Source: Escherichia coli
GTDB taxonomy: Bacteria; Pseudomonadota; Gammaproteobacteria; Enterobacterales; Enterobacteriaceae
Length of the DNA stretch: 64,000 nt
Assembly: GCF_016026235.1 (NCBI RefSeq)
Contig: NZ_CP065613.1
Reading direction: 5' to 3' (one strand)
Within the stretch, counting starts at the first letter, position 1. Each line of letters starts with the position of its first letter. The position numbers were made by a program, and so were the translations under genes. This document shows, in pieces, positions 32,336 to 61,011 of the stretch. Below the pieces are notes generated by a model, which saw only the letters and a list, made by a program, of their open reading frames with translations, searched no databases and was not told the origin of the DNA.

Positions 32336-33400
32336 ATGGTAACGTCCTGTACTGGACATGTTTTAGATAATCAACGCGCCACCACTCGCGGAGTTTTCTC
32401 CTCCGGTAGTCATCTCGTCACTTTGCATTTTCAACCTCATCCTTTCTTTTCATGTGTTACCGACGCCGTAAACGGTGCGCGTAGCCGTTTTTCGGCATTT
32501 TATCCAAAAGCAAACTATGGCTTACAAGGAAGCCAACCCTCTGATGTTCGTGCGCATAATCGCGCTGCCAACGGCGCGTGTGATGAATACAAACAACTCA
32601 AGGTGCTCTCCATGGGAAGACAAAAAGCAGTGATCAAAGCTCGTCGCGAGGCAAAACGTGTGCTGAGACGGGATTCGCGCAGCCATAAGCAGCGTGAAGA
32701 AGAATCGGTCACCTCGCTTGTGCAGATGGGCGGCGTAGAAGCCATTGGTATGGCCCGCGACAGTCACGATACTTCGCCCATCCTCGCGCGAAATGAAGCG
32801 CAATTGCACTATCTGAAGGCTATTGAGAGTAAGCAGCTGATATTCGCCACGGGCGAAGCCGGGTGCGGAAAAACCTGGATCAGCGCAGCAAAAGCGGCAG
32901 AGGCCCTGATACATAAGGATGTCGACAGGATTATCGTCACCCGTCCAGTTCTGCAAGCCGATGAAGATCTTGGCTTCTTACCTGGAGATATCGCAGAAAA
33001 GTTTGCTCCCTATTTTCGCCCGGTCTACGACGTGCTGGTCCGGCGCTTAGGGGCTTCCTTTATGCAGTACTGCCTGCGACCGGAAATAGGGAAGGTGGAA
33101 ATCGCGCCGTTCGCCTATATGCGTGGACGTACCTTTGAAAATGCAGTCGTCATTCTTGACGAGGCGCAGAATGTGACTGCCGCGCAAATGAAAATGTTTT
33201 TAACCCGCCTCGGGGAGAACGTGACGGTTATCGTCAACGGTGATATCACGCAATGCGATTTGCCTCGCGGCGTCTGCTCCGGATTAAGTGACGCGCTGGA
33301 ACGTTTCGAAGAAGATGAAATGGTTGGGATCGTCCGGTTCGGAAAAGAGGATTGCGTACGTTCGGCACTTTGCCAACGTACGCTGCATGCATACAGTTAA
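32336..33400 (+). CDS. phoH: Phosphate-starvation-inducible ATPase PhoH
   Basis: 354-aa ORF with Walker A GEAGCGKT. A shorter product from MGRQKAVIKA is also plausible. Confidence 0.94.
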   Translation: MVTSCTGHVLDNQRATTRGVFSSGSHLVTLHFQPHPFFSCVTDAVNGARSRFSAFYPKANYGLQGSQPSDVRAHNRAANGACDEYKQLKVLSMGRQKAVIKARREAKRVLRRDSRSHKQREEESVTSLVQMGGVEAIGMARDSHDTSPILARNEAQLHYLKAIESKQLIFATGEAGCGKTWISAAKAAEALIHKDVDRIIVTRPVLQADEDLGFLPGDIAEKFAPYFRPVYDVLVRRLGASFMQYCLRPEIGKVEIAPFAYMRGRTFENAVVILDEAQNVTAAQMKMFLTRLGENVTVIVNGDITQCDLPRGVCSGLSDALERFEEDEMVGIVRFGKEDCVRSALCQRTLHAYS

Positions 33401-57526: not shown

Positions 57527-58078
57527 ATGGCGATACTTGGATATTGCAGGGTGAGTACAGATGACCAATCCATCACTAACCAGCAAATGCAAATTGAAGA
57601 GGCAGGGTACAACATTGCTAAATGGTTCACTGATGAAGCTGTCAGTGGTTCTGTCAAAGCTTCTTTAAGAAACGGTTTCAGTAGTTTGTTAGCTTATGCA
57701 CGAGAAGGTGACACCGTAGTTGTGGTAGCTGTAGACCGTCTTGGACGTGACACAATTGATGTGTTATCAACGGTTAAAGCGCTACAGGCTAAAGGTGTGA
57801 CAGTTATCAGCCTTAGAGAAGGGTTTGACTTATCAAGCGCTATGGGTGAAGCAATGTTAGGCATTATGTCAACGTTGGCACAGCTTGAAAGAAGCTTGAT
57901 AGCAGAGCGTAGAAAGGCTGGTATTGAACGTGCTAAAGCTGAAGGGGTACATATGGGAAGACCTGTAAAAGCTTCTTCAGAGGCTGTACAGATGCTTATT
58001 TCACAAGGTAAAACGAGGTTGCAGATTCAGGAAGAGCTAGGAATCTCTAGAGCAACTTATTACAGACTTGCTAAATAA
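57527..58078 (+). CDS. Small serine recombinase (resolvase/invertase family)
   Basis: 183 aa from ATG 57527 with SD AAGGGG. Starts MAILGYCRVSTDDQ, containing the catalytic Ser. Also has VDRLGRD and a C-terminal GRP...ISRATYYRL HTH. Confidence 0.88.
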   Translation: MAILGYCRVSTDDQSITNQQMQIEEAGYNIAKWFTDEAVSGSVKASLRNGFSSLLAYAREGDTVVVVAVDRLGRDTIDVLSTVKALQAKGVTVISLREGFDLSSAMGEAMLGIMSTLAQLERSLIAERRKAGIERAKAEGVHMGRPVKASSEAVQMLISQGKTRLQIQEELGISRATYYRLAK

Positions 58079-58422
58079 GTTATTAAACAGTTACATGGAT
58101 GTGACTGATATTTGGCTTTTTTGCAAAGGGGGTGCTATATCGAGAATGTACCGTACCAAGCAGCTACAGACATCTGTTAGATATTTTCGAAGATTTTTAG
58201 AAGGGGAATTTGAAGAGGGGCTACTACGATTTTATAAAAATTTTCAGATTCTGAAAAGTTACTGTACAGAATACATACAGACATCTTTAAAGTATCTATA
58301 AAGACTTTTAAGATAAAAGATAGATATCCCAGAAAGGATATCCGTTTAGAAAGCCTGTTAAGTATCTCTTAAAAGAGAGTAAACCTTGTCAATAGTGATT
58401 GCAATAAAAATTTTTATTTCTT

Positions 58423-59085
58423 ATGTCAATTGAGCATATTTTAATCGGGAAACATCATGGGGGTTCTGATTACTGGAGAACTCCATTTCTTATATTCCGC
58501 AATTTGCACCGTGAATTTATTTTCAGTCTGGATGGTGCTGCAACTGAGCATGACACGCTGTTACCACGATTCACCGATGATATTCACAATCAGTCATGGG
58601 ATGGTGAAAGGGTCTTCGTTAACCCACCATACAGCGACACTAAAACATTCCTCGTAAAAGCGTCTGAAGCAGATTTAGCGGTATTCCTGATACCGTACCG
58701 ACCCCAAACCATATACTGGCTTAAGCACATCTTCACAAACCCGCTTTGCCATGAAATCCGTATTCTTCATCGTGCAGTTAAATACCTTCCACCAGCAGGG
58801 CATAACAGGCTTACTATTAGGTCACCGTTTCCAAGTGCAGTCGTTGTTTTTAAAAAAGAACCACGTAAGCATGAAATTACACAGATGATTTGCTGTGGTG
58901 ACACATTGCTACCGTTAACCATCATTAACCGTGGTGGACTAAGAGGAAGACCCACCATTTACCCACCTGAGACGCTCGACAGCTTCATAAAACTATACAG
59001 GCAAGGCAAACCCATTAAGTGCATTGCAGATGCTCTCAGAATGCCCCTGAGCACGTCATACAGGATTGCTCAAAGGTTGAGCTAA
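58423..59085 (+). CDS. Phage-type DNA N6-adenine methyltransferase (Dam-like) fused to a C-terminal Hin/resolvase-type HTH
   Basis: 220 aa with DYWRTP...FSLDGAA...VFVNPPYS (NPPY catalytic motif). The C-terminus reads GRPTIYPPETLDSFIKLYRQGKPIKCIADALRMPLSTSYRIAQRL. Confidence 0.75.
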   Translation: MSIEHILIGKHHGGSDYWRTPFLIFRNLHREFIFSLDGAATEHDTLLPRFTDDIHNQSWDGERVFVNPPYSDTKTFLVKASEADLAVFLIPYRPQTIYWLKHIFTNPLCHEIRILHRAVKYLPPAGHNRLTIRSPFPSAVVVFKKEPRKHEITQMICCGDTLLPLTIINRGGLRGRPTIYPPETLDSFIKLYRQGKPIKCIADALRMPLSTSYRIAQRLS

Positions 59086-59189
59086 AATTCTCATAAATAT
59101 GGTCATTTACAAGACAGGTGTTTTAGATATTAAGAAGTATCCCTGTGAACAATAAATGACCAATCAGTAATTATTCTGTGAAATAATTG

Positions 59190-59218
59190 TTGCAATTTAT
59201 AATCACATCTGTTATAGT
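59190..59218 (+). promoter_or_regulatory. Candidate sigma-70 promoter upstream of the rep gene
   Basis: TTGCAA (59190-59195), 17 nt spacer, TATAGT (59213-59218). A ~240-nt leader precedes the ATG at 59466. Confidence 0.45.
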
Positions 59219-59465
59219 TTCTATGGGCTGATAAAAGAACTCAGAACATTAAGAGGTTACAACGTTGGGAGGCGTCAGAGTATTGACGGATTTTCACAGC
59301 CTCTTATTCATTCAAGGCTTTTCCTTTTGCTGTTAATGCTCGCGTAATCGCTCAGGCTTCTGAGTTCCTTTATCAGTCCATCTTCTAATTAATTCACTCC
59401 CTCTGGGGTTGGTCACTATACGTGGTCAGCCCTTTCTTTGTTTTATTTTTAAAAAGGAAAACGTA

Positions 59466-60401
59466 ATGGAAAAATTTCACATGTTTGATGACCGTATTTA
59501 TCAGATGACTAATGGCGTTAAAGCTGCCGACCGTATTATTTACACTGTCATGTTGAATGAACAAAAGTTTTATCACGATAAGGGGCAATATTATACCCCT
59601 TCATATGCTCATCTTGGTCAGTATGCTGGAATCACAAGAACATCCGTGATTGCATGTATGAAACGACTTGAGGCACATGGTTTAATCAAGAAAACTAACG
59701 TTGCAAGCAATCAGTGTGTTATTAAAGTTTATTCACTTGATGAAGTACCGGAAGTTTTAACAGAGCTTACAGCTAAGGAAGCCAGAAAGGCAAAGCTGGA
59801 GTCTAAAGTTACTCAGTCAGTCAAGAAAGATGACCCACTGAGTCAAAATTCTTTACCCACTGAGTCAAAATTTTTTACTCAGTCAGTCAAAATCTTTGAC
59901 ACGTATAATAACAGTAATAACAAGAAAGAACTTATTAATAACAATAAAGAAGATGACTTTGAAGAAGAATCTCTTAAGAAGGGAGCTTCGCTCTGTGATT
60001 CACATGAATGTGATTCTCTTGGTATTGAAGAGGCTATTAAACAATCTGACTTGGATGACCTTGATAAAGAGGCTATTAAACAAGATGAAGTAAACTCTGA
60101 TGTGAATGAAGTTAGTGACCAGCAAGATACACCTTGCCGCCTCGAATCAACTGATGATGAATTACCGGATGTTGACCTTGATGATGAAGAAGACCCTGAA
60201 GAGGAATTGAAACGTGAACAGCGTAAAGCAGAAATTAAAGAAAGATTCAGAAAGGCGAAGCTAAAGAGCAGGATTGATGAACTTGATGACTTTGATGATA
60301 GTGACGATGATTTTACTTTTACACCAAAAAAGAAAACTCACACCGAGCCAAAGAAAGAAAAAGTTAAAGTCAGACGTGTTTATGGTGGAGGAATGTTTTA
60401 A
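59466..60401 (+). CDS. Replication-initiator-like protein (N-terminal winged HTH, acidic low-complexity C-terminal half)
   Basis: 311 aa from ATG 59466 with SD AAGGA. Contains GITRTSVIACMKRLEAHGLIKK (wHTH). The iteron array lies inside the coding region, as for lambda O. Confidence 0.6.
   Translation: MEKFHMFDDRIYQMTNGVKAADRIIYTVMLNEQKFYHDKGQYYTPSYAHLGQYAGITRTSVIACMKRLEAHGLIKKTNVASNQCVIKVYSLDEVPEVLTELTAKEARKAKLESKVTQSVKKDDPLSQNSLPTESKFFTQSVKIFDTYNNSNNKKELINNNKEDDFEEESLKKGASLCDSHECDSLGIEEAIKQSDLDDLDKEAIKQDEVNSDVNEVSDQQDTPCRLESTDDELPDVDLDDEEDPEEELKREQRKAEIKERFRKAKLKSRIDELDDFDDSDDDFTFTPKKKTHTEPKKEKVKVRRVYGGGMF
59811..59960 (+). repeat. Putative origin: four 22-bp-phased iterons followed by an AT-rich tract
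   Basis: ACTCAGTCAGTCAA (59811), ACCCACTGAGTCAAAATT (59833 and 59855) and ACTCAGTCAGTCAAAAT (59877). The AGTCAA cores sit at 59819, 59841, 59863 and 59885. An AT-rich run follows at 59899-59960. Confidence 0.65.
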
Positions 60402-60691
60402 TGAAAACTTATAATGGCGAGAGAAAATACCGTGACTATTTACTCAGACGTTACAGCATTTCTCGTGAAGGTTACTTGATGAAAGATACTCACGGGGAAG
60501 TTTACCGGATTCGACCGAAGAAAGAAGGGAGGGATTATTATTTCGTCGATGGTGTGACAGATTTAAAGATTGACGCTTTGAGGTTTGCAGTGATGTATCA
60601 TTTTGATATCTGGGATTCAGTCCACCAGCTACGATTAAAAGACGGTGACCCCAATAACTTAAAGGCCACCAATATTATCACAAAACGTTAG
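60401..60691 (+). CDS. Small NUMOD4 / HNH_3-like (homing-endonuclease-like) protein, probably degenerate
   Basis: 96 aa with a TAATG overlap with the rep stop. Has YSISREGYLM (NUMOD4-like) and VHQLRLKDGDPNNLKATNI (HNH_3-like). The call rests on motifs only. Confidence 0.45.
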   Translation: MKTYNGERKYRDYLLRRYSISREGYLMKDTHGEVYRIRPKKEGRDYYFVDGVTDLKIDALRFAVMYHFDIWDSVHQLRLKDGDPNNLKATNIITKR

Positions 60692-60873
60692 TTTGTTTTA
60701 CCATCATCAATCGTAATTGTGATTTCATATTTGAAAAGCTTAATGCTGAAATTGAATCGTGTACTTTTGGCGATAATCATTTTTAAAAGCTGATACACCA
60801 GAAGCACCAGAAACACAAAGCAACCTAAGCTTGCGAATCTGTGAGATTCAGCAATTGTTTCAAGAAAGCCCAT
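60688..60873 (-). CDS. Small single-pass membrane protein (hypothetical)
   Basis: 61 aa with an ATG start and SD AAGGGG. TM segment LGCFVFLVLLVYQLLKMIIA. It has its own promoter, TTGTCA-17-TATTAT (60953-60925). Confidence 0.5.
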   Translation of the reverse strand: MGFLETIAESHRFASLGCFVFLVLLVYQLLKMIIAKSTRFNFSIKLFKYEITITIDDGKTN

Positions 60874-60924
60874 TAATTCCCCTTATTTATCAAAGGGAAT
60901 GACCTGTATCAGCCCCCTATAAAC

Positions 60925-60975
60925 ATAATATCATGTAAATGAGATGTTGACAATATGTTAAATAAATGTTAAGAT
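60925..60975. promoter_or_regulatory. Divergent promoter pair with overlapping -35 hexamers
   Basis: Plus strand: TTGACA (60947-60952), 17 nt, TGT-TAAGAT (60970-60975). Minus strand: TTGTCA (60953-60948), 17 nt, TATTAT (60930-60925). Confidence 0.55.
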
Positions 60976-61011
60976 TGTAGTATGAGCAAGAGATTTAAGG
61001 AGATTTTTGCA

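Follow-up and report, generated by a model that had tools for sequence, protein, structure and literature searches.

A probable replication origin of iteron type inside its own initiator gene in an Escherichia coli chromosomal island

Placing an origin of replication within the gene of its own initiator is a textbook design, already known from bacteriophage lambda and from staphylococcal plasmids, and what matters about a further case is the site at which it occurs. Here, we describe such a probable case in a 64,000-nucleotide stretch of the Escherichia coli chromosome (contig NZ_CP065613.1; hereafter the window), where an island inserted in mdtG carries a gene, rep, for a 311-aa protein (Rep) that runs from an ATG at 59466 to a stop codon at 60399-60401. 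The closest described systems come from two very different settings: Firstly, in the staphylococcal plasmid pSK41, a Rep of 319 aa binds four Rep boxes in the centre of rep through a 120-aa N-terminal domain (Kwong et al. 2017, PMC5703833), and the linker that joins this domain to a separate C-terminal domain is encoded by the origin and is dispensable (PMC5703833). Secondly, in the PLE elements of Vibrio cholerae, replication depends on RepA, which binds semi-palindromic iterons but does not suffice without the helper phage (PMC7145576). The RepA_N domain and the origin of PLEs covary while the C-terminal domain is shared, a specificity that has been confirmed by origin swaps (Barth et al. 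2021, PMC8263062), and PLEs encode their own tape-measure, chaperone and hub proteins, with which they build chimeric tails (PMC12987554). RepA_N-type initiators are rare in Gram-negative bacteria, PLE RepA being the first to be functionally characterised there (Barth et al., PMC7145576), and reports of PLE-like elements have to date come from vibrios alone (LeGault et al., PMC9410903).

An earlier note on this DNA, made from its letters alone, had proposed that an origin is embedded in the initiator gene. We consider it probable (at roughly 0.85) that the 311-aa protein is the replication initiator of an island replicon and that the iteron origin lies inside its own gene; the proposal is strongly supported by comparison, not by experiment, and draws above all on the covariation of iterons and N-terminal domain in six types across 28 loci and on homology to the iteron-binding RepA of PLEs. 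Within rep, four in-register 22-bp units stand in tandem, at 59809 (TTACTCAGTCAGTCAAGAAAGA), 59831 (TGACCCACTGAGTCAAAATTCT), 59853 (TTACCCACTGAGTCAAAATTTT) and 59875 (TTACTCAGTCAGTCAAAATCTT). Each is an imperfect dyad of the form T(T/G)AC-N7-GTCAA followed by an A/T tract, and a left half-site, TGAC, recurs at 59897, exactly 22 bp on from the fourth unit. Tandem Repeats Finder describes the array with a period of 22, 3.0 copies, 86% matches and a score of 95. Shuffled sequence would yield 0.92 matches to TKAC-N7-GTCAA per window; the 64-kb window has five, of which four form the rep array at exact 22-bp spacing and the fifth, at 33222, lies outside the island. The array begins at nt 344 of the gene, and iterons and adjoining AT-rich tract together make up codons 115-166. 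The tract is A-rich on the top strand, with 20% GC over 59903-59963 and 36 A and 15 T among the 67 nt of 59899-59965; no other 40- or 60-mer of the rep gene is of lower stability, and in the ~7 kb of island within the window the tract ranks third least stable. The earlier note had placed four iterons at 59811, 59833, 59855 and 59877, with AGTCAA cores at 59819, 59841, 59863 and 59885, in A-B-B-A order at exact 22-bp phasing and followed directly by an AT-rich run (59899-59960); its coordinates are correct, order and phasing can both be read from the sequence, and the run is real, of 20% GC and low stability. DnaA boxes, an IHF consensus and GATC sites are all absent from 59100-60700, a stretch of 1.6 kb without GATC although the island encodes a Dam-family methyltransferase.

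Several features set these repeats apart from repetition at the level of the protein. The four units are read in codon phases 1, 2, 0 and 1, and a 13-nt core common to units 2 and 3, CCCACTGAGTCAA, yields DPLSQ in one and LPTES in the other; the same DNA being read as different peptides, the repeat is a DNA-level feature and not a peptide repeat. It could still be argued that this is low-complexity coding sequence, prone to slippage and functionless as DNA, given that the region encodes a linker predicted to be disordered and that copy number varies between strains. Such an account is very hard to reconcile with a period of 22-23 bp that is not a multiple of three and with the use of all three codon phases, or with the six unrelated repeat sequences described below, which share period, number, dyad symmetry and position and are each tied to one domain type; we regard it as highly improbable. 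A length of 22 bp also quantises copy number, as an in-frame change is possible only by three units (66 bp). Natural variants that remain in frame have seven units (L030, 501-1526) or ten (L031, 501-1595), and the two three-unit copies (L001, 22527-23473; L012, 1006-1979) are both annotated as frameshifted pseudogenes. This 66-bp quantisation of iteron number offers a clean case of double constraint acting on one stretch of DNA, in which the predicted binding sites would at the same time encode a flexible linker.

The evidence that carries the origin reading comes from relatives of the gene. The Rep family is narrow, with 25 representatives at 50% clustering, mostly from E. coli, and the comparison set comprised 28 loci: 25 that fall into three N-terminal types, 35-44% identical to one another in that domain, and three distant relatives. 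Each type has iterons of its own: T(T/G)AC-N7-GTCAA at a spacing of 22 bp in type A; AACCA-N5-TGGTT at 22/23/23 bp in type B; and TGACA-AAA-TGTCA at 23/23/22 bp in type C. Across the 25 loci the correspondence between N-terminal type and iteron type is one-to-one, with the motif of another type found in no gene, and all arrays start at gene nt 325-353, have about four units and are followed by an AT-rich tract. The three distant relatives (~30% identity; from E. coli, an Enterobacter and a metagenome) likewise lie in islands with a tape-measure gene. Midway along each of their genes stand three to four units, again 22-23 bp apart but with a sequence of their own, and an A-rich tract comes after them. 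There are thus six specificity types in the 28 loci, each with its own winged-helix domain and its own iterons, and what is kept across them is how many units there are, how far apart and where in the gene they lie, their dyad character and the A-rich tract beside them, but not the sequence of the iterons. A protein and the sites that it binds would be expected to leave just this pattern, iterons and DNA-binding domain changing in step, and the six matched pairs constitute ready-made orthogonal modules of protein-DNA recognition.

The same comparison bounds the covarying block and bears on whether the repeats are the site of some other process, such as a pac signal for a helper terminase or the target of the island's recombinases or of its neighbouring methyltransferase with a C-terminal helix-turn-helix fusion (Dam-HTH). 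Satellites do need a packaging signal, and the island encodes three other proteins with helix-turn-helix or recombinase DNA-binding parts. However, only the N-terminal domain of Rep changes with the iterons. Dam-HTH is essentially invariant across Rep and iteron types, and is therefore not the iteron binder. The leader variant upstream of rep does not follow Rep type either (L017 and L013 are both type C and have different leaders), which places the upstream limit of the covarying block close to the start of rep. Taken together, the invariance of Dam-HTH and the untied leader reduce the block to the N-terminal domain of Rep, the iterons and the AT-rich tract, and leave very little likelihood for a site serving another protein.

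This block behaves as a unit in recombination. Within a type, the first ~530 nt of the gene (domain, iterons and AT-rich tract) show a nucleotide diversity of 0-0.11, the 3' half mostly 0.13-0.36, and breakpoints in blastn alignments cluster at gene nt 485-491, 549, 563-569 and 618, just 3' of the tract. Low 5' diversity and the position of these breakpoints indicate that specificity module and C-terminal half assort independently, and C-terminal halves reach ~90% nucleotide identity between genes with unrelated N-terminal types. In lambdoid phages, modules of N-terminal domain plus iterons likewise assort independently of the C-terminal part. The parallel with PLEs extends further: in both, DNA-binding domain and origin form a swappable, covarying module with a C-terminal part shared across types, the N-terminal domains of the initiators are homologous, and the iterons are semi-palindromic (bound in PLEs, predicted to be bound here). 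Both are also small islands with a large serine recombinase and with tape-measure and hub proteins of their own related to those of a virulent myovirus, although here this is known from intact relatives (L002 and L003), the window showing only the start of the tape-measure gene. The two differ in that the PLE origin is non-coding and away from repA, and here lies inside rep, and in setting, with a Vibrio host, 17-18 kb and ICP1 on one side against E. coli, ~11-12 kb and tail genes resembling those of Felix-O1-like phages on the other, the similarity having been compared at the N-terminal domain of Rep only.

Homologues of Rep are labelled in RefSeq only as 'helix-turn-helix domain-containing protein', and its identification as an initiator draws on structure and on more sensitive profiles. 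AlphaFold2 models the N-terminal domain with a predicted local distance difference test score (pLDDT) of 85-95 over approximately residues 10-110, as a winged helix with a long helix at 103-120. Foldseek searches of this model against the PDB returned as top matches the staphylococcal RepA_N initiators of pSK41 and pTZ2162 (RepA; 4pql, 4pt7, 4pta and 5kbj, E 8e-5 to 8e-4), together with 4RO3 (E 1.4e-4), with TM-scores of 0.67-0.70 across the top matches. The last of these is the N-terminal domain of V. cholerae PLE RepA (Barth et al., PMC7145576). A profile of nine family members also matches 4RO3 by sequence, at E 1.5e-7 over 72 residues and with a convincing alignment, so that by sequence and fold comparison the N-terminal domain of Rep is a homologue of that of PLE RepA. 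Replication-initiator families in PHROG match Rep at E 7.7e-11 to 6e-4. Beyond the domain, pLDDT falls below 50 over residues 125-234, as expected of a disordered segment, and a single C-terminal helix is confidently predicted at residues 244-273 (nt 60195-60284); residues 167-311 contain 46 D+E against 26 K+R, with an isoelectric point of 4.4. Fold model and composition therefore bear out a further suggestion made from the letters alone, of an iteron-encoded linker between a winged helix-turn-helix domain and an acidic C-terminal half. The acidic tail also contains a motif, DDDFTF (residues 280-285, 60303-60320), that is kept across types A, B and C and is internal rather than C-terminal. It resembles the C-terminal tip of SSB, DDDIPF, and may be a motif for contact with the replisome.

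From these parts, a mechanism of initiation can be proposed. Dimers of the N-terminal winged helix would bind the four dyad-symmetric iterons, which their spacing of 22 bp, about two helical turns, would place on one face of the helix, and the A/T tract that follows each iteron should bend the DNA. The resulting nucleoprotein complex would melt the adjacent A-rich tract of 20% GC, and the acidic, largely disordered C-terminal half would recruit helicase and primase, supplied by the host or by a helper phage, allowing an excised circle to replicate in theta mode. The layout is that of pSK41, whose Rep offers an even closer architectural match than lambda O: both proteins have ~310-320 aa with an N-terminal domain of ~120 aa and of the same fold, four central boxes in rep, an origin-encoded linker and a distinct C-terminal part with a presumed replisome contact. 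They differ in that the island Rep lacks a Pfam RepA_N match, is encoded in a Gram-negative chromosomal island rather than a Gram-positive plasmid (and on no plasmid that was found), and has a C-terminal half predicted to be acidic and mostly disordered in place of a folded DnaG-binding domain. The earlier note had drawn the likeness to the lambda origin in gene O, and as architecture this stands: lambda has four dyad iterons from gene nt 349 (here 344) at a spacing of 20-24 bp, with an A-rich tract of 40-60 bp after them, and its iterons too encode a linker between the DNA-binding N-terminal and the C-terminal parts. Homology is another matter, the relatives of Rep being PLE RepA and RepA_N-type initiators. 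Homology to lambda O was undetectable and is rejected (BLASTP E >2; hhalign probability 0.1; no match to Phage_rep_O, PF04492), the PHROG 'O-like' families that match Rep at 4.5e-8 to 6e-4 are remote-homology clusters, and the gene downstream of rep encodes 96 aa without similarity to the helicase loader P. Nor does Pfam Rep_3, the family of the iteron-plasmid initiators RepE, Pi and pPS10 RepA, match the Rep of the window or, among the families listed, the nine family members scanned.

A number of observations weigh against this interpretation. Binding and initiation are, for this Rep family, predictions from comparison. The Foldseek matches to staphylococcal initiators are moderate, with target-normalised TM-scores of 0.53-0.55. 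Neither RepA_N (PF06970) nor Phage_rep_O was matched by the window protein in Pfam at E up to 0.1, RepA_N was not among the 25 Pfam families listed for nine Rep members scanned at E up to 1, and the Pfam matches that do exist are weak and sub-threshold, to the winged-helix family HTH_36 and to DnaD_N (E 8.6e-4 in the nine-member scan). Conservation by itself gives no way of picking out the iterons within a type: the 5' module as a whole hardly varies, and the adjoining DNA that encodes the domain is at least as well conserved as they are. Domains of a helicase, primase or loader are absent from the nine island open reading frames (ORFs) of the window and from the tape-measure protein, hub-like protein, large recombinase and small ORFs of L002. 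The integrity of the island also comes into question: draft contigs with an identical Rep (L032 and L033) end inside the tape-measure gene, ~5.1 kb past the start of rep, and a copy at the same mdtG site in strain RM9088 (L001, 26820-31577) carries insertion sequences (IS), ISEc12 lying inside the tape-measure gene. The window's own island may be decayed or IS-disrupted beyond 64000.

Finally among these points, two island segments between ORFs or annotated genes, 58268-58327 and 60917-60976, are slightly less stable than the tract within rep. They give some room to an alternative in which the repeats are solely control sites bound by Rep, acting through roadblock autorepression, handcuffing or incompatibility, with the true origin elsewhere, for example in such AT-rich gaps. 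Initiators commonly bind extra iterons for control, as in iteron plasmids. The PLE origin, moreover, is intergenic (PMC7145576). However, in all six types an A-rich tract of low stability adjoins the iterons and moves with them as one recombination module, no second cluster of iterons of the same type exists in the window (where the sole other match is the one outside the island), and in both pSK41 and lambda the same layout serves as an origin. We consider a purely regulatory array improbable, and favour an in-gene origin at which Rep both binds and initiates.

That such an origin would make the island autonomous once excised, as the earlier note took to be implied, does not follow. The island proteins scanned include no helicase, primase or loader, Rep is found on chromosomes only, and PLE RepA, as its closest characterised homologue, cannot drive replication without its helper phage. 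Equally, RepA_N plasmids need only Rep in order to replicate, so that autonomy is possible too. The Rep family was found in 143 of 5,426 complete E. coli genomes, and all 148 places at which it occurs (148/148) are chromosomal; tblastn detected no match among 72,556 plasmids, a finding that concerns where Rep occurs rather than whether it can replicate a plasmid. Scans of GTDB species representatives and of IMG/VR returned no member of the family, and a metagenome scan added six loci.

The island may prove a greater novelty than the origin that it carries. E. coli chromosome (mdoGH, yceK, msyB and a truncated mdtG) fills the left 57 kb of the window, and the island takes over at ~56950, with ~7 kb in the window and the remainder beyond position 64000. 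Intact relatives are inserted at other sites (yciI-tonB in MRE162; ymdF-wrbA in strain 67-1) and the whole element measures roughly 11-12 kb (L002, 14491-25463; L003, 14518-25912), ending with a tape-measure protein, a Dit-like 'baseplate' (hub-like) protein and a large serine recombinase with Recombinase, Resolvase and Zn_ribbon domains. The tape-measure protein of these relatives matches Pfam TMP_3 at 3.4e-20 and is 30% identical, with conserved ends, to that of the Felixounavirus Bas63; the Dit-like protein is 74% identical to bas63_0018, whose gene in Felix-O1-like phages comes after that of the tape-measure protein. We tentatively suggest, as a possibility that falls somewhat short of even odds, that these islands are undescribed phage satellites of E. 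coli and other Enterobacteriaceae and the counterpart of PLEs: elements of 11-12 kb that would excise through the large serine recombinase, replicate from the in-gene origin only upon infection by a virulent Felix-O1-like myovirus, and contribute tape-measure and hub proteins of their own to chimeric tails. At least three interchangeable modules of Rep domain and iterons, together with a frame-locked iteron number, would then be the footprint of an arms race against origin-directed counter-defences of the Odn type in phages. A search of 50,697 phage records with the N-terminal domains of all three types for an Odn-like homologue gave only a weak match in a Parageobacillus phage. No account of this E. 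coli island family came up in literature searches, although one may exist. Were the suggestion correct, the islands would provide a genetically tractable E. coli model in which to study how satellites replicate, how they depend on a helper and how origin specificity evolves, with candidate helper phages available in public collections (e.g. the BASEL phage Bas63).

The features of the island that fall within the window are collected in Table 1.

Table 1. Positions of the replicon and of neighbouring island features in the window, with the evidence for each.
Feature	Position	Strand	Evidence or remark
Small serine recombinase at the left island end (183 aa as annotated in relatives)	57527..58078	+	Pfam Resolvase 1.1e-41; relatives labelled 'recombinase family protein'
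Dam-family N6-adenine methyltransferase with C-terminal HTH_7 fusion	58423..59085	+	Pfam Dam 7.3e-14; HTH_7 2.7e-4, below gathering score
Promoter-like site, 160-nt hairpin and terminator-like hairpin; candidate leader or small RNA controlling rep	59190..59446	+	Directly upstream of rep
rep, predicted 311-aa initiator: N-terminal winged helix, iteron-encoded linker, acidic and mostly disordered C-terminal half	59466..60401	+	ORF; PHROG matches
N-terminal DNA-binding domain, residues 1-115 (confident fold to ~120), RepA_N/DnaD_N-like winged helix	59466..59810	+	AlphaFold2, Foldseek, family profile
Iteron array	59809..59896	none	Dyad cores 59809-59824, 59831-59846, 59853-59868 and 59875-59890; A/T tract after each
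AT-rich, A-strand-biased tract, putative DNA unwinding element	59899..59963	none	20% GC; equivalent tract in all six types; recombination breakpoints just 3'
C-terminal half, acidic, predicted disordered, one confident helix, DDDFTF motif; putatively replisome-recruiting	59964..60401	+	pLDDT, composition
96-aa gene, ATG overlapping the rep stop (ATGA), translationally coupled	60401..60691	+	Position kept in nearly all relatives
Start of tape-measure protein gene, running off the window	63776..64000	+	First 24 residues identical to the L002 tape-measure protein

The segment directly upstream of rep comprises a sigma-70-like promoter (59190-59218; 9/12, with TG), an irregular hairpin (59223-59381) and a terminator-like hairpin with a T-run (59405-59443; 12 pairs). 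Its fold has a z-score of -5.5 both in the window and in the divergent variant of a relative, with the same architecture in single-sequence folds; RNAalifold gave a poor consensus, the two variants aligning badly, and no Rfam family matches the leader. It may be a leader or small RNA that gates the expression of rep. On the other side of rep, the 96-aa protein, which reached no Pfam gathering threshold and matched no PHROG, is a possible partner of Rep, and several small island ORFs between its gene and the start of the tape-measure gene match no family. Two divergently oriented promoter-like sites, each with 10/12 matches and a TG, lie in the AT-rich gap at 60917-60976; this gap, which is flanked by a 61-aa minus-strand ORF and a 106-aa ORF at 60982, may serve the island as a regulatory switch. 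In other members of the family, likely defence or nuclease cargo sits beside the replicon, with AbiTii and HNH genes in L028 (15521-17154) and an HNH endonuclease replacing Dam in L022 (1-27).

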